Below, in pieces: positions 1,703 to 64,000 of a stretch of 64,000 nucleotides of DNA. The DNA is taken from IMG/VR virus record IMGVR_UViG_2711768659_000002, positions 6,897 to 70,896 of that record; one strand, given 5' to 3'. A program made the position numbers and the translations under genes. Below the pieces are notes generated by a model. That model did not search any database, had not been told where the DNA came from, and worked only from the letters and a program-made list of their open reading frames with translations. Every line of letters starts with the position of its first letter. The stretch's first letter is position 1. This stretch comes from a virus. Taxonomy: Duplodnaviria > Caudoviricetes.

Positions 1703-3349
1703 ATGAGCAAAATAAAAAGGCTTGTAACTCGGCAGGCACTGGGAATCGAAGAGTCAGCCTACAATTTTGGAAAAGTTAATGTGATTTCTGGTGGAAATGC
1801 TCGGGGGAAAACAAGCATTCTTGAGATAATCGAAAAGGGTTACTACAACACCGATAGACGAGATAAGTTTGTTCGTACTGGTGCAGATAAGGCCTACATA
1901 GAACTTGAGACAGATGATGGAATGAGGGTTGAAAGGACTATAAACGAGGATGGAACCAGTAGCGTAAAAGTCACCAGGGATGGTATTCCGGTCCGGGCAC
2001 CGCAGACATTTCTTGACCAGTTATTCGGAGTAACTAAGGAGCGTAAAGATGTATTCGCTTTTAATCCGGTGGACTTTATGGACAAGTCACCAAAGGAACA
2101 AAGTAAGATTCTTCTTTCCATGATGCCAATATCCGTAAGCCAGAAGGATATGAATGAATGGTTTGAGGGTAATGTGCCGCCGGTTAACCCCAATATGCAC
2201 GGATTATTAGTGCTGAAAGAATTGGAAAAGTACTGGTATGATGCCCGGCACGAAGCAAATGGGGCCGTCAGAGCTACGTCTGCGGAAGTTGAAGCTTTGC
2301 AGAAGCAGCTTCCTGATAACTATGACGTAACTGAATGGGAAAGTTATTCCTTAATGGAATTGTCAGACAAAATCCGTAAAGGTGAACAGACTAATAATTA
2401 CCGCAAGCAGGCTCAGGTTCTTATTGATGGATTGGATGATAAGAAAAAGTCCATAAATGATAAATACGATCTGCAGGTTAAAGAGCAGGAAGAACTTCGG
2501 GATTTTAAAGTTCAGAGAGCGCAAAAGTCCATTGATGATCAGAAACAGGTTATCAAAGATGAAATTGAGAGCATAAAAGTCGATATTAATTCTCATAGAT
2601 CCGAAATTGAAAGGCTTAGAGCTTTAATCTTTGATGAAGAGACTGCGATTAAGAATTGTGAAACCAAAATCCAGCTCAATCAGAAAGACCTTGATAATTT
2701 TGATAATTCCATACTTGCTACGAAAACTGAATCCATAGCAAACGAAATGAATATTGCAGTTAATGCAATTGAAGAGAACCGCCAGAAGGAAATTGAAGCA
2801 GCCGAGAAACGCGCAAAAGATGCTGAAAATTATCTTGTCGAGAATCTAGAAATAGAGATTATGCCTCTTGAAGAACAATATTCACAAGCTGAGAAAATGA
2901 AAGGTTTTGTTGAGATGGCTCACAACCTTCAGAACGTCCAAACCCGCCTTGAAAATGAAACGGCTGTGGCTGAGAAATACGACAGATTTGTTGAACTATG
3001 CCGTAAGAAACCTGCTGAGCTACTGAAATCCATCAAGCTTCCTGTTGAAGGTCTTTCAATTGGAACAATCAAGAACGGCGATAAAGAGGAAAACATTGTC
3101 CTTTTTGAAGGCCAGACACTTAAGCAGCACAATACAGCCAAGCAGATCACTACCTGTATAAACATCGCCAAAGCCTATGCAAAAGATACGCCACTGAAAC
3201 TTATTTGTGTGGATAGAATTGAATCGCTTGATGAAGATGCTAGAGAAGAATTCTTCCGTCAGATTGAGTCTGATGATGAGTATCAGTATTTCGTTACCTT
3301 GGTAACTCGTGGGGAAATGAAAGTTGAATCGAAAGGGCAGGTAGGGTAA
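1703..3349 (+). CDS. AAA/SMC-Rad50-like ATPase with long coiled coil (phage recombination module)
   Basis: Walker A GGNARGKTS, central coiled coil, Walker B-like ICVDRIESLD; directly upstream of YqaJ-RecT. Confidence 0.85.
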   Translation: MSKIKRLVTRQALGIEESAYNFGKVNVISGGNARGKTSILEIIEKGYYNTDRRDKFVRTGADKAYIELETDDGMRVERTINEDGTSSVKVTRDGIPVRAPQTFLDQLFGVTKERKDVFAFNPVDFMDKSPKEQSKILLSMMPISVSQKDMNEWFEGNVPPVNPNMHGLLVLKELEKYWYDARHEANGAVRATSAEVEALQKQLPDNYDVTEWESYSLMELSDKIRKGEQTNNYRKQAQVLIDGLDDKKKSINDKYDLQVKEQEELRDFKVQRAQKSIDDQKQVIKDEIESIKVDINSHRSEIERLRALIFDEETAIKNCETKIQLNQKDLDNFDNSILATKTESIANEMNIAVNAIEENRQKEIEAAEKRAKDAENYLVENLEIEIMPLEEQYSQAEKMKGFVEMAHNLQNVQTRLENETAVAEKYDRFVELCRKKPAELLKSIKLPVEGLSIGTIKNGDKEENIVLFEGQTLKQHNTAKQITTCINIAKAYAKDTPLKLICVDRIESLDEDAREEFFRQIESDDEYQYFVTLVTRGEMKVESKGQVG

Positions 3350-4344
3350 TGAATACAGAATCAATAACAAGAAATATTAATATTCTTTCTGATGTCAGAA
3401 CTCTCTCAAACGAGCAGTGGCTTACAGTCAGAAAGACTGGAATCGGCGGTAGTGAAATAGCCGCGCTGTTCGGTAAAAGCAATTATGCAAGTCCACTATC
3501 CATCTACATGGATAAAATGTCGGATGAAATCAGAGATGAATCCTCTGAAAATGAATTTTTAGAATGGGGGAAGACTCTGGAACCATTAATCAGAGAAAAG
3601 TTCCCAGCAAAATTCAAAAAAACTACTGGTATCGATATAGAGGTTCGGGAATTTCCATACATAATGCAGTCGCTTGATTGTCAATTCATGCTTGCCAACA
3701 TTGATGGACTTGTTGCTCCGCAGCAGGATTATAAATTCAACGTTCAGGTGTCTGATGGTGAATGGGAAGAATGCTTCATACCTGCTGGATTAACCGGAAT
3801 CCTTGAAATAAAAACAGGCAGCGGCTTTACGGCGAAGAACTGGAAGGAAAATTCACTACCGGACAATTATTTTTTACAGACGCAGAGCTACCTTGGAATT
3901 ACCGGCTTATCGTACGCATTTGTTGTTGCCTTAATAGACAAGCATCTGCTGTGGCGGTACATTCCGAGAGATGATGAAATCATCACAATTATAAAAGAAA
4001 GGGTTCATGAGTTTTGGACTGAAAACATTTTGAAGAAAGTTCCACCGGCTCCGATAGGTAGCGATATTGATACCGGCATCCTGAAATCAATGTATCCTCA
4101 GGAGCTAAAGGACAAAGCGCTGAATCTTGACCATATGGCAGACAAGAGAATTCGTTACAAGCAGCTTGCCGAAGAAATCAAGAATCTGCAAAAAGAGCAG
4201 GACACAATCAAACAGGAATTCATGTCTGTTCTTGGCGATGCAGAAGTGGGATTCTGCGGTGACAAGAAGGTATCTTGGAAAATGCAGGCTGGCAGTACAT
4301 ATACGGTTACCAGACAGCCGCAAAGGATTTTACGAATAGGATAG
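3349..4344 (+). CDS. YqaJ-like viral recombinase / lambda-type exonuclease
   Basis: WLTVRKTGIGGSEIAA, MLANIDG, LEIKT, YFLQTQSYL motifs. Confidence 0.92.
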   Translation: MNTESITRNINILSDVRTLSNEQWLTVRKTGIGGSEIAALFGKSNYASPLSIYMDKMSDEIRDESSENEFLEWGKTLEPLIREKFPAKFKKTTGIDIEVREFPYIMQSLDCQFMLANIDGLVAPQQDYKFNVQVSDGEWEECFIPAGLTGILEIKTGSGFTAKNWKENSLPDNYFLQTQSYLGITGLSYAFVVALIDKHLLWRYIPRDDEIITIIKERVHEFWTENILKKVPPAPIGSDIDTGILKSMYPQELKDKALNLDHMADKRIRYKQLAEEIKNLQKEQDTIKQEFMSVLGDAEVGFCGDKKVSWKMQAGSTYTVTRQPQRILRIG

Positions 4345-4709: not shown

Positions 4710-5546
4710 ATGGCACAAGCAGGTAAAGGAAATGAAGAATTAAAGAATCAACTGATAAACAATCAAAATGCAATTCAGAAAGCGCCTACGGTTCAGGGGT
4801 TATTAGAAACTCCGAAATACAAGAAAAGGTTTGAAGAAATCCTTAAACACAGGGCAGCACAGTTTATGGCCAGCATTATAAATGTCTCTCGTGGCATGGA
4901 CGCGGAGCCAAACAGCATCATAATGGCTGCTGCAGTTGCTGCAAGTCTTGACCTTCCGGTTGATAAAAACCTAGGATATGCATGGATAGTGCCGTTTAAG
5001 GAAAAAGGTGTCGCCGTTGCGCAGTTTCAAATGGGTTACAAGGGTTATGTACAGTTGGCATTAAGAACAGCTCAGTACAAAGGTATTGGCGCAGTACCGG
5101 TATATGCTGGTGAAGCCAAATATTATGACGAACTGCTTGGAATATTTGAATATGAGCCTAGGGATGATATTAAGCCAGATGAGAAACCTGTCGGTTATGT
5201 TGCTAAATTTGCCCTTCTGAACGGCTTTGAAAAAGCACTATATTGGACGAGGGAAAGAGTAGAAAAGCATGCCAAGAAGTATAGTCAAACTTATAAGCGC
5301 GGCTTTGGAAGATGGACTGAAGACTTTGATGCAATGGCTCTTAAAACAGTTATAAAAACTCTTCTTTCTAAGTGGGGCATTCTCTCAATTGAGATGCAGA
5401 AAGCGCAGGCAGCTGATGGCGGTGTCATAAAAAATGATGATGTGACGAACCCAGAATCTGTTGAATATCCAGATAACTCCGATGCGATAGAAGTTGAGTA
5501 CACTGCTGAACCTTCGGATGCTCCTGAATTTCTTCAGCAAGATTAA
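4710..5546 (+). CDS. recT: RecT family single-strand annealing protein
   Basis: LGYAWIVPF, AQFQMGYKGYVQLALRT, W..DFDAMALKTV motifs; strong RBS. Confidence 0.95.
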   Translation: MAQAGKGNEELKNQLINNQNAIQKAPTVQGLLETPKYKKRFEEILKHRAAQFMASIINVSRGMDAEPNSIIMAAAVAASLDLPVDKNLGYAWIVPFKEKGVAVAQFQMGYKGYVQLALRTAQYKGIGAVPVYAGEAKYYDELLGIFEYEPRDDIKPDEKPVGYVAKFALLNGFEKALYWTRERVEKHAKKYSQTYKRGFGRWTEDFDAMALKTVIKTLLSKWGILSIEMQKAQAADGGVIKNDDVTNPESVEYPDNSDAIEVEYTAEPSDAPEFLQQD

Positions 5547-5626: not shown

Positions 5627-6370
5627 ATGGCAAGACGCAGATATATTTCAACTGAAATTTCAATAGATAAAGCAGTTAACCGACTTGCTGTAGAATACGG
5701 AGATTTTGCGGCTCTGCTTTATACATGGATGATTCCCCACGCGGAGGATACTTGCCTGATAACTGCAGATCCATTTGAGATTAAAAACAAGGTTATGCCG
5801 GCCAGAACTGATAAAACAGAGGAAGATGTGCAGCATGCGATTGATGGAATGATAAAATTAGGTCTTGTTTCATTAATAGACGGCAAAATATTGAGTTTCC
5901 CTCCAGAATCCTTCTATAAGTACCAGACCTACATACCGGAAAAGAAACGCCGAACTTCACCGCAAAATACCGAAGAACACCGTTATCCTTCACATTCTCC
6001 TATACCTAACTTAACCTATATAGAAGAAGAGGAAGAACGTGCGCGTGAGGGTGAAGTGTTCAAATTTTTTAACCAAAACATTGGATTAATTACACCGTTT
6101 CAGGCTGAGCATATTACAAAATATTTGGATGAAGATGGTTTTGAACCCAAAATGGTACTTGAAATTCTCCGAGATAGCATAGGCATGGATAACAAATGGG
6201 GTTGGATTAAAGCTGTATTGCATAATTCAGTACTTCAAAATGTCAAAACCCTTGAACAATACCAGTCAAAGAAAGCTGAGAGAGGTAATAAAAAAGGCAG
6301 AGATGCACCCAAAAGAACAGCCAGCTTTTTAGAGATGGCAAAGGAGATGATGGAAGATGAACAAGAGTGA
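5627..6370 (+). CDS. Phage replication initiator (N-terminal DNA-binding domain plus DnaD/DnaB_2-like C-terminal domain)
   Basis: Position after RecT; internal iterons in linker; FFNQNIGLITP..WGWIKAVLHN..VKTLEQ resembles DnaD domain. Confidence 0.8.
   Translation: MARRRYISTEISIDKAVNRLAVEYGDFAALLYTWMIPHAEDTCLITADPFEIKNKVMPARTDKTEEDVQHAIDGMIKLGLVSLIDGKILSFPPESFYKYQTYIPEKKRRTSPQNTEEHRYPSHSPIPNLTYIEEEEERAREGEVFKFFNQNIGLITPFQAEHITKYLDEDGFEPKMVLEILRDSIGMDNKWGWIKAVLHNSVLQNVKTLEQYQSKKAERGNKKGRDAPKRTASFLEMAKEMMEDEQE
5950..5989 (+). repeat. Four phased 10-bp iterons inside the initiator gene (putative ori)
   Basis: ccgaacttca/ccgcaaaata/ccgaagaaca/ccgttatcct; lambda-O-like intragenic origin design. 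Confidence 0.7.
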
Positions 6371-6908
6371 GACACTTGGTATAATGGCTGCTCTTGAAAT
6401 AGCATACCCTAGATTTTATGCCAATAAGACAAAGGACGAAAAGGATGCTGCAATTAATCTATGGTCAAAACTGTTTAAGTCTGATGATGCCAAAATAGTC
6501 ACTGAAGCCGTAAATGCCATGATATGCACTCTTGAGTTCCCGCCAACTATTGCAGATATTAAAAAGAAAATAGCCTTATTGACACAGCCTAAAACCTCCA
6601 CTGAGTTAGAGGCTTGGAATAAAGTTTGGAAAGCTATCCAAGACGCTAATTACAGAGCACAGGAATATTTTGATAGCTTCCCACCACAAATTCAGCAGCT
6701 AGTTGGCAGCCCAGGACAGCTTAGAGAATGGGCATTAATGGACAGCAAGGTTATAAACAGTGTAATACAGTCAAATTTCATGCGAAGTTATAAATCAAAA
6801 ATCGAGCAAGACAAAGAATATTCGATGCTTCCGGAATCTGCGAAAAAACTTATAGCTGACCTTAGTCAGAAAATGTTGATGGATGGTGGGCAGGATGCTA
6901 AGGCCTGA
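6357..6908 (+). CDS. Replisome organiser / helicase loader-inhibitor (SPP1 G39P-like)
   Basis: AYPRF..INLW..LF..D..V.EAV..I..LEFPPTIADI pattern directly after the initiator. Confidence 0.7.
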   Translation: MNKSETLGIMAALEIAYPRFYANKTKDEKDAAINLWSKLFKSDDAKIVTEAVNAMICTLEFPPTIADIKKKIALLTQPKTSTELEAWNKVWKAIQDANYRAQEYFDSFPPQIQQLVGSPGQLREWALMDSKVINSVIQSNFMRSYKSKIEQDKEYSMLPESAKKLIADLSQKMLMDGGQDAKA

Positions 6909-20402: not shown

Positions 20403-20813
20403 ATGGGTCGCCTTACTAAGGAGCCTGAACTCAGATATACAACAGGTAACAACACAGCAGTCGCAAGTTTTACTCTGGCTGTAAATAGGAGATTTGCGCA
20501 AGAGGGTCAGCCAAAGGCAGATTTCATAAACGTTGTGGCATGGAGTAAAACGGCTGAGTTTGTGGGAAAGTACTTCACAAAGGGAATACAGGTAGCTATA
20601 GTTGGCAGAATCCAGACAAGGACCTGGGATGACAACGAGGGTAAGAAGCACTATGTTACGGAGGTTGTAGCGGAGGAGGCTTATTTTGCAGATAGTAAGA
20701 GAAGCGGAGAGACGGGGGGCGGAAGTCCGGCACCCAGAACCTATTCCGAGAATCCTCCATCATCGGGAGATGGTTTCTATCCAATTGACGAGGATGATGA
20801 GCTTCCATTTTGA
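20403..20813 (+). CDS. ssb: Single-stranded DNA-binding protein
   Basis: GRLTKEPELRYT, ADFINVVAW, GRIQTRTW, acidic DDELPF tail; conserved N-terminus extends in frame to ATC at 20385. Confidence 0.95.
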   Translation: MGRLTKEPELRYTTGNNTAVASFTLAVNRRFAQEGQPKADFINVVAWSKTAEFVGKYFTKGIQVAIVGRIQTRTWDDNEGKKHYVTEVVAEEAYFADSKRSGETGGGSPAPRTYSENPPSSGDGFYPIDEDDELPF

Positions 20814-33152: not shown

Positions 33153-36100
33153 TTATATTTTTACAACAACTCTTGCTAGTTCACCAGCCAAACTCTGTTC
33201 GTCGGCATTGTCTTCAAATACTGTTTTTTCAGAATTAAACAGAGGAGCGTTAAAAATTACTCGCCTGTCTGTATTGTTCGAAACGCCTGGAGATGTCATT
33301 GGTCCCGATGAATTTGCTCTCAGTGCGGTCATGACCTGCTCTAAAGTCGCTGATAGATTTGGAGGAAATACAATTTCGCCTTTATGTAGTGCCGCAAATC
33401 CGTCTGATAAAGCTTTGCCACCGCCATCAAAAGTAGGATATTCACCCTTAGCGGGGTCCTTTCCATATTTAGCCCGAAGAGCATCATTAGCAGTATGAAG
33501 CGACTTCATATCTGTACTATTAAATTCTTTATAGCCTTGTGATTGGAGAGCAGCCCATTGTTCTCCATTGGCTTTAAAGGCTTGGTAATCAGCATCTGAC
33601 ATCCCCCAATCATGAGAGGGGAGAGTGGAAATTGAATTGTCAAGAACTCCTGAACCAGATGCAAAGCTTGAGAGATTACCGGAATTCAAAGCAGTTTGAA
33701 GCGGAGTAAGATAGTTGTCTACCCACTGCCGGTATGCCTCCTTGGACATTACGCCAGCTCTGGCTACTATATCTGCGCTATGTTCATCAAATGCTTTTTC
33801 GATAAGCTTATAGGATGATTCCCATTTTTCTTTTTCCTCATTTGCAGCTTTTTCAATTGCATCTATGGCATCTTGAGCAGTTTGCTTTTTGTCCTCAAGG
33901 GTCTGTTTTTGAAGCTCTACCTCGTGGTCGTGCTCCTTTTCGGCTATCTGCTTATTGAGATCTGCAACATTTTTACGAGCTTCCTCTGAGGTTCTGACAC
34001 TCCAGTATGCAAGCTGCTCCCTAAGGTCGGCCATCTCATTTGCATAGTCATGCTCGCCTTCTAGTCGGTCAAGTGCCTTTTCCTCAGCTTCAATTCCCCT
34101 GATTATTTCCTCCTGAGCCTCTTTTTTCTTCTTAGCCTCATCCTCAATTTGCTTTATTCTTTCGTCATAAGCATTCTTAATGGATTTTTGCTGTTCATCC
34201 AGGAGATTCTTATAAAGCCCGAACAGATTCTCAGTGCGCTTGTATTCTTCAGCCTGGTCTTTGGCTTTAACTTTGTAAAGCTCGCGGTATTTATCAATTT
34301 GCTGCTGAATACTATAGATGCCAAGCTTAGCCCAGTGCTCAATACTGTTCTCTTCCTTCTGGGCCGTTTCTTCAGCGAGCTGGGTTCTTAGCTTGTAAAG
34401 ATTTAGGGTCGCCTGTTTTATAGCCTCCTGATTATTTGCCTGTGTTTTGAGGACTTTTTCCCAAGCGGCGATTTCCTGAGCCACAGACATCTTACCGAGT
34501 TCTTTTTGCTCAGATATCCAATCAACAGAGATCTGAAGTCGCTTGTCTTTAAGGCGTTTTTCAGTATCGTAAATACGCTCAGACATATCATTATGCTCAT
34601 CGGCCGTTTTTGCATAAGCAGCATCAATTCTTTGGAGTTCCTTAAGTTCAGCCTGGATTGACGAAATAGTTTCTTCCGAAATCTTTTTGCGGTGTTCAAG
34701 GGCCTTGAGTGCATTATTTAAAGCTTTGTTCTCTTTTGAACCGCTTTTTGAAGTTACCCCATAGCTAGGATTTGATAACTTATCTTGAAGGGAATTTATT
34801 AAGTCCAGGGCTTCTCCGTAATCATATAGAGTTTGTTTTAGGTTATCAGAACTTTTAAAAGCCTCGTCAGGAATGATTCCGCGTAAATTTTCAGGAGGGC
34901 TAGTAATGTTTGCTGCCGCCACTCGCGCGTCGCTTAAAGTTTTGATGGCACTTATTTCAATGCCATATGCTTTTAACCTAGTGCCGAGTTCTCTTGATGT
35001 AGTTTCAGTTATCCCGAGTTCAGCCTTTAGTGTTTCAGTTTGCTGCTTTATCTTTGCTTGTCTTAGTGTCTCAATCGCATCAAATTCTACTGTATATCCT
35101 TCAGCGGTCTTATTAATTGCACCAATAAGCTCAGGATATTGTACAAGCAACTCAGTAATTTGTTCGGCAGTTATTGAATTGCCTTTATTTACGCTGTCTC
35201 TTATTTGGTTCAGGTTCTTTAGTTCATTGTTGAATTTATAAAGTTCACCTTTATTGTCAAAGAAAGATTGAGACAAAGCATCAATTCCTGCTTTGAAGGA
35301 AGGAAGCTCATTTTTAGCTTGACTTATTGTTGAACTATTACCAAACATTGATTCCATGGTTAAAACAAAGTTGTCCAGTTCAGGTTTACCGGCAGCAAAT
35401 GTATGAACCAAATCCAAAATCGACTTTGAAGCGCTATCAATGCCAGCGGTATCGCCTTTGGCTTTAAAATCGTTGTACTTCTGAATTGCTTCATCAAAAT
35501 TCGAATTGTTCAGCTGCTCTATGAACCCTTTTAACGCATCTCTTTGTGATTGTATATCCTTAGGCTGCAATGCTAACGATTTTGTGAATTCAGCGGCGAA
35601 TGCCCGGGTTGAATCAGATACCTTCGTGCCACTTTGTTGAAGCTGTTTAAAGATGGATTCTGCATCGTTTTTAAGTAACTGCTGACGGTCTTTTGAGATA
35701 TCAGATATTTTACTGTTAAATTCGATGTATGTTTGCTCTATTTCTGAAGCTACTTGACTATAAGATTGAATAGATGATTTCAACCACTTTGCTTGTTCAG
35801 GGTTAGAAGCGTCATATACAATTCCTGAACCAAGATTGATTTTCCCTTTAGTTTCAAGTGCTTTTTGCATATCAGCAATTTTTTGTTGAGTCTCCTGGAG
35901 GCTTTTATAGGCAGCATCTCGCTTTTTAATTGAACCCTCTAATTTCGAAACATCATCGTTATCTTTAGCACGGACAGCAGTCTCAAGCCTTTTTTGTTCT
36001 ACGGCAAGTTCATCTTCAAGAGCCTTTGTTCTGAGTTTAATCATTTCTATAGAATCTGAATAAGCTTCGCCTTCAGCGTTGATGCCGGTAATTGAAACTC

Positions 36101-56027: not shown

Positions 56028-56054
56028 TTATCCACATACCACTATATGTTGTGG
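56028..56054 (+). promoter_or_regulatory. Perfect DnaA box adjacent to an NrdR-like box
   Basis: TTATCCACA (56028-56036) and CCACTATATGTTGTGG (56039-56054). Confidence 0.5.
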
Positions 56055-60320: not shown

Positions 60321-60543
60321 TGCAGATTGGTATATATGGGCATCCAACAGGATTTACCCTCTGGCAAGTTCCCAGCTTCGGCAACTTTATCAAGCACACT
60401 GATAGAGGCGAGAGGGCAGTAATGGGTTTATCAGCGGTCCGGTTAATTCCGGGAAAGGGTATATAATAATTTCAATCCACACTTTTCCCGTGACAACCTT
60501 GGTTTACCAAATTCATAATTTTATTTCAAGGAGGAATTGCAAC

Positions 60544-61368
60544 GTGAGAGCAGCTATTTACACACGCGTAAGCACCGAGGAGCAGGCTCGTGAAGGCTAT
60601 TCCCTGGCAGCCCAGGAAAAAGTTTTGCGTGATTATTGCGAGCTTAAAAATATAGAGGTTATAGAAGTATATTCAGATGAGGGCATTTCCGCAGGAACTA
60701 TGATAAAACGTCCGGACATGCTAAGAATGCTTTCAGATGCGAGGGAGTATAAATTCGATTTTATTCTTGTTTGGAAATTGACCAGGTTTAGTAGAAATTT
60801 AAAGGATTTGCTTAATACTTGTGACGAACTCGAAAGACACGGAGTTTATCTGCAAAGTTTTTCTGAAAACTTTGACGGCAAAACACCCGCAGGACGACTA
60901 ATGCGCGGAGTGTTGGGCCTTATGGGGCAATTTGAAAGAGAGGTCTTATCTGAAAATGTTATTCTCGGTTTAACTGAGCGTGCATATGGGGGTGCAAGGA
61001 CATGCAGTCAACTTCTTGGCTATGATGTAATCAAAGGTGGCAGTATGACTGTTAATCAAACTGAGGCAGAGATAGTCAAATTTATTTTTAGTACATACCT
61101 GAAGTACAAAAATTTAACTGAGGTTGCGTCATTATGTCGCCAAAAGGGTTTCCGTGGCAAACGTGGCAGGAAATTTGATGCATTCAAGATTGAGGTAATA
61201 CTTACCCGTTTTGTATATGCGGGGTTTTACAATTGGCATAATAAGCCACTAAAAGGAGATTTCGAGCCAATCATTAGTATCAAAACATACAACAAGACAC
61301 AACAATTGTTAAAGGCTCAAGGTTCAATCGTCGGCAGAAATCGTAAACACGAACTCGTATTTTTGTAG
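60544..61368 (+). CDS. Serine recombinase (catalytic plus recombinase domain; no Zn-ribbon/coiled coil)
   Basis: AAIYTRVSTEEQ..GYSL..Q, DEGISAG...RP, KLTRFSRN, GYD; only about 274 aa. Confidence 0.9.
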   Translation: MRAAIYTRVSTEEQAREGYSLAAQEKVLRDYCELKNIEVIEVYSDEGISAGTMIKRPDMLRMLSDAREYKFDFILVWKLTRFSRNLKDLLNTCDELERHGVYLQSFSENFDGKTPAGRLMRGVLGLMGQFEREVLSENVILGLTERAYGGARTCSQLLGYDVIKGGSMTVNQTEAEIVKFIFSTYLKYKNLTEVASLCRQKGFRGKRGRKFDAFKIEVILTRFVYAGFYNWHNKPLKGDFEPIISIKTYNKTQQLLKAQGSIVGRNRKHELVFL

Positions 61369-61550
61369 TGATGGCTTTAGATTCTCACTCATAGGTTTAT
61401 CTGTGCTTAAAATAATTCGGGGCAATTCCCCACGCGCGCGTACTACACATATTTAAGTTTTTATATTTATTTTATTATATATTACTAAGGGTATATACCT
61501 TCTCCTTCTCCTAACCTACTATATTTAAATATAGTATATATTATATATGT

Positions 61551-61630
61551 AGGTTAACGGCGTTTTGCGGTGAAATGCGGCGTTCTTCGGTGATGTTCGG
61601 TGATTGTCGGTGATGTTCGGCGTTTTGCGG
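61551..61630 (-). repeat. Eight phased 10-bp iterons matching those in the initiator gene, followed (on minus strand) by an AT-rich tract
   Basis: Minus strand: ccgcaaaacg/ccgaacatca/ccgacaatca/ccgaacatca/ccgaagaacg/ccgcatttca/ccgcaaaacg/ccgttaacct. Confidence 0.85.
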
Positions 61631-61665
61631 TGTTACAAATATTTACAGTGAAAGGATGTGATTCT

Positions 61666-61857
61666 ATGACGAATGCACAGGCTCAGGGATATGCTGTTGT
61701 AGCGTTAAGCCGGTTAATTGCAGCAGGACGCATTAAAGGCAATCGGGCAGAATTATGCCGCCTGCTCGACCGGAAGATGTATGATCTGATGGATATCATG
61801 TTTGAAGAAGAGGCCGAGGAAAAAGCCGGAAGAATTTTAGAGGGGAGAGTGGTTTAA
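61666..61857 (+). CDS. Hypothetical 63-aa protein
   Basis: AAGGATGTG RBS; directly abuts the recombinase. Confidence 0.65.
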   Translation: MTNAQAQGYAVVALSRLIAAGRIKGNRAELCRLLDRKMYDLMDIMFEEEAEEKAGRILEGRVV

Positions 61858-62442
61858 ATGCTTAAACTACCAAAAATTATTGACCAAAAGTCTGTCAAAA
61901 AAATGCTGGCACAGATCAACGCCGACTGCCCAACCGGCGCCAGAAACTATGCAATAATCATTATGATGTATCGTGCTGGCCTGCGTGTACAGGAGATATG
62001 CGATTTAGGTTTATCTGACTGCAATTTTGAAACGGGGCTAATATACGTCCAGCAGGGCAAAGGTGGCAAGGACCGGTATGTGCCTATGGATGATGACATT
62101 GAAAAATCATTAAAGGCCTGGTTTGCTGTCCGGCCAGAAAGCCAGTTAGTATTTTGCACGCTTGAAGGCGGTCAGTTGATGCAGAGATACATTAGGGAAG
62201 TCTGCTACAGAATATCTGAGAAAGCCGGCGTATTTATCCAGGACGGCGCTGTAAAAAAGCCTGTAAGCCCTCATAAGCTTAGACATACCTTTTTGACAGA
62301 GGTTTTGAGAGAAGGCACTGTAAACATCCGAGAGGTGCAGGAGCTGGCCGGACACAGTAGCTTAAACACAACAATGGTATATACCCATGTGGTTATGGAT
62401 GAGCTGCAGGAGAAAATTAAGAAAAGGAAGGGAATTACCTGA
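61858..62442 (+). CDS. Short tyrosine recombinase (catalytic domain only, FimB/Xer-like size)
   Basis: YRAGLRVQEICDL, GKGGKDR, PHKLRHTF, LAGHSSLNTTMVY; 194 aa. Confidence 0.92.
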   Translation: MLKLPKIIDQKSVKKMLAQINADCPTGARNYAIIIMMYRAGLRVQEICDLGLSDCNFETGLIYVQQGKGGKDRYVPMDDDIEKSLKAWFAVRPESQLVFCTLEGGQLMQRYIREVCYRISEKAGVFIQDGAVKKPVSPHKLRHTFLTEVLREGTVNIREVQELAGHSSLNTTMVYTHVVMDELQEKIKKRKGIT

Positions 62443-62477: not shown

Positions 62478-62741
62478 TTACATTTTGTATAGAAACCACT
62501 TGCAAGAAGCAATCTCATACTTCAACTCATATATTTTTTCTGTATTGTCAACAACGCTTTGACATTTATATAAATACATACGGTTTCCTGCAATCTTCTC
62601 TTCCTCCACAGTTATGATTCTGCCCACTCTTATTATAATGCAATCATCACCGTCGGATGCAAACTTAAATTTAACAGGATTAGGTTTTCCTGCCGTTGTA
62701 AACCACGCTATCATTTCTACCGGCCTCATTAAAACTTTCAT
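62478..62741 (-). CDS. Small accessory protein downstream of the Y-family polymerase
   Basis: 87 aa coupled to dinB-like gene; occupies the YolD/UmuD-partner position. Confidence 0.65.
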   Translation of the reverse strand: MKVLMRPVEMIAWFTTAGKPNPVKFKFASDGDDCIIIRVGRIITVEEEKIAGNRMYLYKCQSVVDNTEKIYELKYEIASCKWFLYKM

Positions 62742-62752
62742 TCTGCACCTAC

Positions 62753-64000
62753 CTATAATATACTGGTCATCATTGTATACTCTTCTGCCGGAACTCCTCC
62801 ACTTACAGGAGAATATCCGGAATGTAAAAAACAGGAACGAAACACGGACCGGGTTCCATGCTGCATACGGATACTATCTATGGCAGCATCCAGTTGCTTT
62901 TTCTTCTCATCGTATTTTTCAAATAATGACAGCTGTACAAAATCATTTCCGCAAAACTCACTAACTCTTACTCCAAGTTTACGTATATTTTGCCCTTGCC
63001 ATAACTGATTGAAGAGCATGCATGCAGCCTGATATATATCATTAGTACAATCGGTAGCAGCGGCGAATTTGTGCTGGTGCCCGCAGTGTACAAATTCATT
63101 ACTGGTTATTGATACAGCAACCAAACGTGCACAGTATTTTGCTTGCCTGAGTCTCATACAAACGGTTTCTGTGAGGGATAATAGCACTTTATATGCATCT
63201 TCTCTGCTGTCTACATCATGTCCGATAGTTGTGGAATTTCCAATGCCTTTCATAGGCGGACGGCCGTCAGAAGCAACATCTGAGCTTTCGATTCCGTTTG
63301 CATACTCGCGCATAACTTTCCCGTAACTTTTAAAATAATACGACAGAACTGAAGGGTCTGCCTGAGCTAACTGCCCAATAGTGTATATCCCAAGTTTATG
63401 CAATTTAGGGATAGTAGCACGTCCTATTCCATACAGGTCACCTACCGGTAAGGGCCACATTTTTTTAGGTATTTCATCCTTCCACAACGTATGTACCATA
63501 TCCGGTTTCTTTAAATCTCCTGCGATTTTAGCAAGCAGTTTGTTGTTGGATATACCGATATTTACTGTAAATCCCAACTCCTGCTTTATCCGGTCCTTGA
63601 TTGTATGAGCAGCAGCAGCAGGGTCGGGCCAAATACGCTCCATACATGTGAAATCCAGAAAGCATTCATCAATACTAAAAATTTGGATATTAGGTGAGTA
63701 CTCTTCTAAGAGCCGTATCATAGCTGCACTGCATTGCATATAGAGGTCATACCTGGGTGGAACGACGACTATACTTGGACACCGTTGCCGTACTGCATAA
63801 AGAGATTCACCAGTCTGTATTTGATAAGCTTTAGCTGGAATGCTCTTGGCCAAAACAATTCCATGCCTGGAAGTCTCATCGCCGCCCACGACAGAGGGTA
63901 TCTTCCGGAGATCAACAGTATCTCCGTGTTGAAGTCTCCATGTGGCCTCCCAAGATAAATATGCACTATTAACATCGATATGAAAAATAATCCTATCCAT
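62753..64000 (-). CDS. dinB: Y-family DNA polymerase (DinB/UmuC-like)
   Basis: FHIDVNSAYLS, SIDECFLD, IGISNNKLLAKIA, LYGIG; C-terminal QLSLF clamp motif. Confidence 0.95.
   Translation of the reverse strand: MDRIIFHIDVNSAYLSWEATWRLQHGDTVDLRKIPSVVGGDETSRHGIVLAKSIPAKAYQIQTGESLYAVRQRCPSIVVVPPRYDLYMQCSAAMIRLLEEYSPNIQIFSIDECFLDFTCMERIWPDPAAAAHTIKDRIKQELGFTVNIGISNNKLLAKIAGDLKKPDMVHTLWKDEIPKKMWPLPVGDLYGIGRATIPKLHKLGIYTIGQLAQADPSVLSYYFKSYGKVMREYANGIESSDVASDGRPPMKGIGNSTTIGHDVDSREDAYKVLLSLTETVCMRLRQAKYCARLVAVSITSNEFVHCGHQHKFAAATDCTNDIYQAACMLFNQLWQGQNIRKLGVRVSEFCGNDFVQLSLFEKYDEKKKQLDAAIDSIRMQHGTRSVFRSCFLHSGYSPVSGGVPAEEYTMMTSIL

Follow-up and report, generated by a model that had tools for sequence, protein, structure and literature searches.

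The element at 61431-61630 raises the question of why a temperate phage would carry, in non-coding DNA 55.6 kb away from its initiator gene, a second and inverted set of the phased repeats that lie within that gene. To answer it, we analyzed the 64,000-nucleotide stretch of DNA that contains both sets (the window), together with the genome that harbors it and two related prophages. Our findings suggest that the element is probably a second, intergenic copy of the replication origin, bound by the initiator, and a paralogue of the origin at 5950-6047. Given this second-origin reading, our analysis makes firing and a predominant role in fork arrest appear about equally plausible. The coordinates of both copies and of the associated genes are collected in Table 1.

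Table 1. Components of the two putative origin copies and associated phage genes, in window positions.
Feature	Position	Strand	Description
YqaJ exonuclease	3349-4344		
RecT	4710-5546		
Initiator (replisome organizer), 247 aa	5627-6370	+	Winged-helix N-domain, origin-holding linker, DnaD/DnaB_2 C-domain
Intragenic iteron array	5950-5989	+	4 x 10-bp units, the last being CCGTTATCCT; in the organizer linker
Intragenic spacer	5990-6047	+	Purine tract GAAGAAGAGGAAGAA; ends with the CGTGCGCGTG box at 6038-6047
G39P-like helicase loader	6357-6908	+	Pfam Inhibitor_G39P 8e-17; PHROG 2289 "helicase loader"; overlaps the end of rep
SSB	20403-20813		
GC box CGCGCGCGTG	61431-61440	-	Closes the element
AT-rich tract, candidate DNA unwinding element	61441-61550	-	110 bp, between array and GC box
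Extragenic iteron array	61551-61630	-	8 x 10-bp units, the last being CCGTTAACCT; non-coding DNA
63-aa ORF, no family	61666-61857	+	ATG at 61666, AAAGGA ribosome-binding site; 35 bp from the array
194-aa tyrosine recombinase	61858-62442	+	Xer-like catalytic domain only; Pfam Phage_integrase 1e-39

The anatomy of the outside element agrees with what the first-pass annotation had described from the letters alone. The eight phased 10-bp units are present on the minus strand, where all of them, read from 61630 to 61551, start with CCG. The individual unit matches to the intragenic array were also reproduced, at 9 of 10 bases for ccgaacatca/ccgaacttca and for ccgaagaacg/ccgaagaaca, and at 8 of 10 for ccgcaaaacg/ccgcaaaata. 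Similarly, the shared CCGTTA(A/T)CCT array end, the GC motif that follows it in both copies, the AT-rich tract of roughly 110 bp and the non-coding position upstream of the 63-aa gene and the tyrosine recombinase were all recovered (Table 1). Within the window, the pattern CCG-N7-CCG-N7-CCG-N7-CCG occurs only at 5950-5982 on the plus strand and as five overlapping matches in 61558-61630 on the minus strand, with none expected from 100 shuffles. Across the 4.9-Mb genome, a scan for the phased CCG pattern returned both arrays and one unrelated GC-rich site only.

The AT-rich tract has an AT content of 80% (measured over 61442-61557) and includes an invariant purine tract, GGAGAAGGAGAAGG, and a 20-bp palindrome at 61517-61536. 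No other 100-bp stretch of the window is as unstable as 61448-61547, within this tract, whose dG of -99.0 kcal/mol lies about 4.9 sd from the window mean (-131.2, sd 6.6). As single-stranded DNA, the tract folds no better than its shuffles (z -0.2), and a simple scan found no promoter-like site on its plus strand. A promoter-like site on the minus strand, with a hairpin, lies at 61418-61432 and is conserved in neither of the two related prophages, G018 and G062. No DnaA boxes were found at either iteron origin, and GC skew, which tracks gene orientation and turns near 25.4 and 55-56 kb, marks neither of them. A perfect DnaA box, TTATCCACA, is located at 56028-56036 in a gene-free divergent region, where cumulative GC skew turns and early and late transcription diverge. 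Comparison of 60.4-62.5 kb with 50,697 phage records gave no DNA match.

The first set of repeats lies in the linker of the initiator, a predicted replisome organizer (Rep). This protein matches Pfam DnaB_2 over residues 145-214 (5e-9), and it also matches PHROG 186 "DnaD-like helicase loader" (1e-18) and NCBIfam DnaD_dom. An AF2 model of residues 1-110 (pLDDT 90) is a winged helix; the structural matches of this N-domain were winged-helix domains only, with generic scores (Z up to 8), no specific initiator family stood out among them, and the N-domain has no Pfam match. Searches of phage records with the organizer and the loader returned distant protein matches only. The intragenic spacer has an AT content of only 65% (5990-6040), presumably because it is required to remain coding.

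Phased 10-bp (C/G)CG arrays were present at the same linker position in all the more distant homologues of the Rep N-domain examined, whose sources were viral contigs as well as genomes with titles such as Moorella, Tepidibacillus and Clostridiaceae, so the origin-in-gene design appears to be family-wide. The longest intragenic array observed in the family, in a distant homologue of the organizer, comprises 11 phased units, mostly CCGGAAAACA, at L028:10325-10434 (IMGVR_UViG_3300012179_000012). The Rep studied here is shorter by exactly 10 residues (30 bp, equal to three iterons) than those at L020:10321-10390 and L005:1826-1895, both from related prophages. As the 10-bp units lie within a reading frame, the length of an intragenic array can change only three units at a time.

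A closer comparison of the two copies reveals a common order of parts: iterons, CCGTTA(A/T)CCT, a short AT or pyrimidine stretch, a purine tract and the GC box, with the outside copy holding about 60 bp of additional AT-rich DNA. Compared position by position over three phages, the intragenic and extragenic arrays have the unit pattern CCG[A/C]AnA[A/T]CA in common, and the GC box is present in all three extragenic copies and in two of the three intragenic ones. Translated searches detected similarity to Rep residues 107-132 across the outside array, which is that of the iteron DNA alone, and none to the N- or C-domain of Rep in the flanks of the array. Judged from their sequences, the two copies are homologous, paralogous units of a putative origin.

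Two syntenic relatives were available for comparison: the G018 prophage (the same phage as IMG/VR provirus G063) and IMG/VR provirus G062 (74,199 bp). Rep is 72% identical in G018 and 75-80% identical in G062 (tblastn best segment and full alignment), and DNA identity over the aligned parts averages 74-76%. In all three prophages, the extragenic array has the opposite orientation to rep, at a distance of 50-56 kb on the integrated map. Both relatives carry 7 intragenic units and 8 to 10 extragenic ones; the earlier statement that the outside copy has twice as many iterons is thus correct for this phage (8 vs 4) but does not hold as a rule. The outside arrays of G018 and G062 end in CCGTTAACCT, followed by a near-identical AT-rich tract and then by TACGCGCGCG.

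Both copies are among the most conserved DNA of the alignments. In the alignment with G062, no 135-bp window of the prophage reaches a higher identity than 61437-61571 (97%, compared with a mean of 76%); against G018, the two best 135-bp windows are 5905-6039 (the top one, 91%) and 61495-61629. Within the outside element, the AT-rich part and GC box (61431-61560) are 96% identical to G062 and 84% to G018, the iteron part is 77% and 64% identical, respectively, and identity collapses immediately past the GC box. Sequence conservation of the AT-rich tract is far above what melting needs, which suggests that the tract carries some further function. A single iteron consensus is common to the three prophages, with no allele-specific co-variation linking the array to this Rep. 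Exact-motif scans of viral and metagenome contigs with CCGTTAACCTACATATAT and AGGAGAAGGAGAAGGTAT found the element only in the two related proviruses, the other matches being without iterons or within coding GEGEG stretches. No second array was found in the more distant Rep relatives, for which most of the records searched are incomplete.

Among the neighbors of the outside element, the 194-aa recombinase gene is a conserved companion, with 76-82% nucleotide identity in G018 and G062. Its coverage of the NCBIfam XerA, XerC and XerD profiles is limited to their C-terminal part. The 63-aa gene is also retained in the relatives, where the G018 homologue is on the opposite side of the origin copy; its product has no Pfam, PHROG or NCBIfam match, and the Atlas returned hypothetical clusters only, below 0.9. 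An invertible DNA switch of the FimB/FimE kind, served by a short tyrosine recombinase, was considered and rejected: no convincing inverted repeats were found bracketing 61400-61660, and Xer models give the recombinase a better score than models of invertases do. To the left of the element, a 292-aa serine recombinase (60490-61368) matches positions 8-251 of the 542-position CcrB profile, that is, the N-terminal half of large serine recombinases. With only this half matched, and with no counterpart in G018 or G062, the gene probably represents a remnant or a split gene.

The prophage extends over 76.0 kb between 46-bp direct repeats of the 3' end of tRNA-Trp, located on contig C1 at 154617-154662 and 230640-230685. 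A third, partial copy of the tRNA-Trp 3' end (21 bp) lies at C1 154403-154423, 214 bp to the left of attL, and may be the scar of an earlier integration at that tRNA. The left end codes for a tyrosine integrase of 496 aa as well as for HTH repressors and antirepressors. The early genes are oriented rightward as far as about 25.9 kb and the late genes leftward from 55.4 (55.5) to 25.9 kb, and a further rightward block occupies 56.7-62.4 kb. One early protein of 384 aa (L001:15255-16409; C1 161477-162631, about 4.7 kb to the left of the window) combines a PemK/MazF-like toxin domain (1.5e-31) with a P22-type antirepressor (P22_AR_N and ANT domains), an unusual fusion. At the right end, a Y-family DNA polymerase (IMS, 415 aa) and a small upstream ORF of 87 aa occupy 62478-64000 on the minus strand; this polymerase is cargo within the prophage beside attR, and the G018 prophage is without it. 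The outside array lies 2.8 kb from attR, and therefore the excised circle would have a short arc of about 20.4 kb and a long arc of 55.6 kb between the two copies. The separation of 55.6 kb given by the first-pass annotation accordingly applies to the integrated map, whereas on the circle the copies are also connected by the short arc.

In addition to the organizer, loader, exonuclease, RecT and SSB genes listed in Table 1, we searched for further replication functions. No phage DnaB-type helicase was found in the prophage (contig C1), the DnaB_C matches of the genome being confined to contigs C3 and C4, and the ORFs scanned yielded no Holliday-junction resolvase. The loader, at 183 aa, is longer than the 126-aa G39P of SPP1; a longer loader in a phage lacking its own DnaB-type helicase may reflect retargeting to the host helicase.

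Several other functions could be attributed to a second iteron array. It could act in copy control or incompatibility, titrating or handcuffing the initiator and damping the intragenic origin in the style of P1 incA. The higher number of units outside than inside rep in this phage, their common pattern and the conservation of the array in three prophages are all compatible with such a role, which we nevertheless consider unlikely. Pure titration could do without an unwinding element, but the tract attached to the array is less stable than any other DNA of the window and better conserved than any other of the prophage; the 2:1 ratio of units is not general, given the 7 intragenic units of both relatives; copy limitation would be of no obvious gain to a lytic burst; and, with its att sites and integrase, this is an integrated phage rather than one maintained as a plasmid. 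Control of transcription provides another option, in which the array would be an operator and the bound initiator would block or tune expression of the 63-aa gene and the recombinase. The array ends 35 bp before the 63-aa start codon both here and in G062, a gap that leaves no room for a promoter, so any transcript of these two genes must cross the array, and the recombinase gene adjoins the element in all three prophages. However, the 63-aa gene of G018 stands on the other side, with a different small gene about 190 bp after the array, and the plus strand of the tract yielded no promoter in the simple scan. An operator would also leave unexplained the eight phased sites, the unwinding element and the GC box held in common with the intragenic origin, and we find this function quite improbable.

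The remaining alternatives concern the origin of the element rather than its activity. The block at 56.7-62.4 kb, which holds two recombinase genes and many ORFans, had been proposed as a Rep-less satellite whose origin would be the outside array and which would borrow the initiator of its helper. This proposal is very hard to sustain, since a single pair of att repeats bounds the entire 76-kb prophage with the block inside it, and since G018 and G062 have other DNA in place of 56.2-61.4 kb but retain the origin copy and the recombinase, which are core DNA within that one att pair. Furthermore, the serine recombinase of the block is an N-terminal half only, and the motif scans of viral and metagenome contigs never placed the element in a small Rep-less contig. 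Descent from a second rep gene that has decayed, with the array surviving by chance, would account for the translated similarity to Rep across the array, but we regard it as scarcely credible: that similarity is the iteron DNA itself, the flanks bear no resemblance to the N- or C-domain, Rep has one match in the genome, and little DNA of this prophage lineage is as well conserved as the element. Decay without conservation, which the first-pass annotation had named as an outcome that would overturn its proposal, is thus the opposite of what the related prophages display.

The unit pattern, the predicted ease of melting and the conservation in three prophages are best accommodated by the second, opposed origin that the first-pass annotation had included among its options. 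Its companion suggestion, that the working origin has moved out of rep, is unsupported, as every relative retains the intragenic array. For the second-origin reading, we envisage that, after induction, the winged-helix N-domain of the organizer would coat both arrays. The outside array would offer eight helically phased predicted sites for this DnaD-type organizer, and binding would be expected on one face of the helix because of the 10-bp phasing. The AT-rich DNA beside the outside array would melt, and the G39P-like loader would bring the replicative helicase, presumably that of the host because the prophage encodes none. The outside site could in this way serve as another origin, oriented toward the first one along the long arc. 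When occupied, it could also form a tight initiator-DNA complex that stalls forks coming from the other origin. Such stalling would correspond to the role proposed for SPP1 oriR, namely a switch to concatemer synthesis driven by RecT and the exonuclease.

A different arrangement, which we consider doubtful, is that of two opposed unidirectional origins with unwinding elements that face each other across 55.6 kb; the outside AT-rich element would be the main lytic origin, and the conserved Xer-like recombinase beside it would resolve the circular products. The fork starting in rep would move in the direction of the early genes (6 to 25.9 kb) and the outside fork in that of the late genes (55.5 to 25.9 kb), and the two would meet where transcription converges. 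If true, this would amount to a replichore-like organization in a temperate phage, which is not described for SPP1.

The two-copy organization can be compared with several well-known replicons. In phage lambda, the origin lies inside gene O, with phased iterons and an AT-rich stretch in the linker between the DNA-binding and recruiting domains. The intragenic copy described here resembles it in occupying the linker of the initiator; lambda differs in having a single origin, and it is not known to have a second copy. The satellite phage P4 has two separated clusters of repeats bound by the alpha protein, ori and crr, which are kilobases apart. Alpha is a primase-helicase, crr is an auxiliary site required in cis and without its own unwinding element, and neither cluster lies inside the initiator linker. 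The likeness is that one replicon holds two separated clusters of repeats, which in our phage are putative initiator-binding sites; the differences are that the organizer is of the DnaD type, that the second cluster is a full origin copy with an AT-rich element and that one array lies within the linker of the initiator. In plasmid-prophage P1, the incA iterons lie beside repA, have no unwinding element and act negatively on the plasmid replicon. The incC/incA pair is similar to our case in that a second iteron array outside the origin serves the same initiator (putatively so here), but the array studied here has the full anatomy of an origin and belongs to an integrated phage.

The closest counterpart is phage SPP1, in which oriL lies inside gene 38 and oriR is intergenic; G38P binds both, and each combines direct repeats with an AT-rich unwinding element (PMC6316719, PMC5737612, PMC3485210). 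The oriR copy adjoins moron genes, and the two origins are 12-13 kb apart on the circle and 32.1 kb apart on the linear map; G38P bound to oriR has been proposed to act as a barrier that stalls forks and leads to the switch to concatemers, with the exonuclease G34.1P, the RecT-type G35P, the SSB G36P and the resolvase G44P as the players in that switch (PMC6316719, PMC5737612, PMC3485210, PMC3561973, PMC5615212). Reading the SPP1 sequence, we located the copies, which share one orientation, at about 35940-36020 in gene 38 and at about 4870-4960 in the interval that separates genes 7 and 8. The claim of the first-pass annotation that no described phage system has such an arrangement therefore does not stand, as oriL and oriR of SPP1 already have it.

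The likeness to SPP1 extends over several features. Both phages carry repeats with an AT-rich element in the linker of the organizer gene and again in a distant intergenic copy beside accessory genes. In both, the gene for a G39P-type loader follows the organizer gene. The prophage likewise encodes a recombination set suited to a theta-to-sigma transition, comprising a YqaJ-type exonuclease, RecT and SSB. Along the shorter way round, the copies are separated by 12-13 kb of a total of 44 kb in SPP1 (PMC6316719, PMC3485210) and by about 20 kb of 76 kb here.

The two phages also differ in several respects. The copies are direct in SPP1 and inverted here, and their repeats are unrelated, with GAAAAAGACAC boxes of about 11 bp in SPP1 and 10-bp CCG units in the present phage. 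BLASTP between the organizer and G38P gives an E-value of 0.08, and the C-domain is DnaB_2/DnaD here and Phg_2220_C in G38P; without significant similarity and with another C-domain, the organizer appears to be an analogue of the same class rather than a member of the G38P family. SPP1 encodes a DnaB-type helicase, G40P, whereas none was found in this prophage, and SPP1 is lytic, whereas the present phage is temperate and integrated. Unlike in SPP1, the outside copy exceeds the inside one in repeat number and, by a wide margin, in the strength of the AT-rich tract.

The SPP1-type dual origin is a known design, and the prophage described here is, as far as its sequence allows it to be classified, a conserved further example of it. 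These findings would extend the two-origin design of SPP1 to temperate 76-kb prophages of the clostridial type that have an organizer of an unrelated family and no phage helicase, and in whose genomes both origin copies rank among the most strongly conserved DNA. As the role of an oriR-type copy, firing or fork arrest, is unsettled even in SPP1, this lineage could serve as a second test system, one that has inverted copies and an outside copy predicted to unwind clearly more readily than the inside one. The comparison also suggests a rule for annotation: when the linker of an organizer gene contains phased repeats, a second copy should be sought elsewhere before an intergenic array is named as new.
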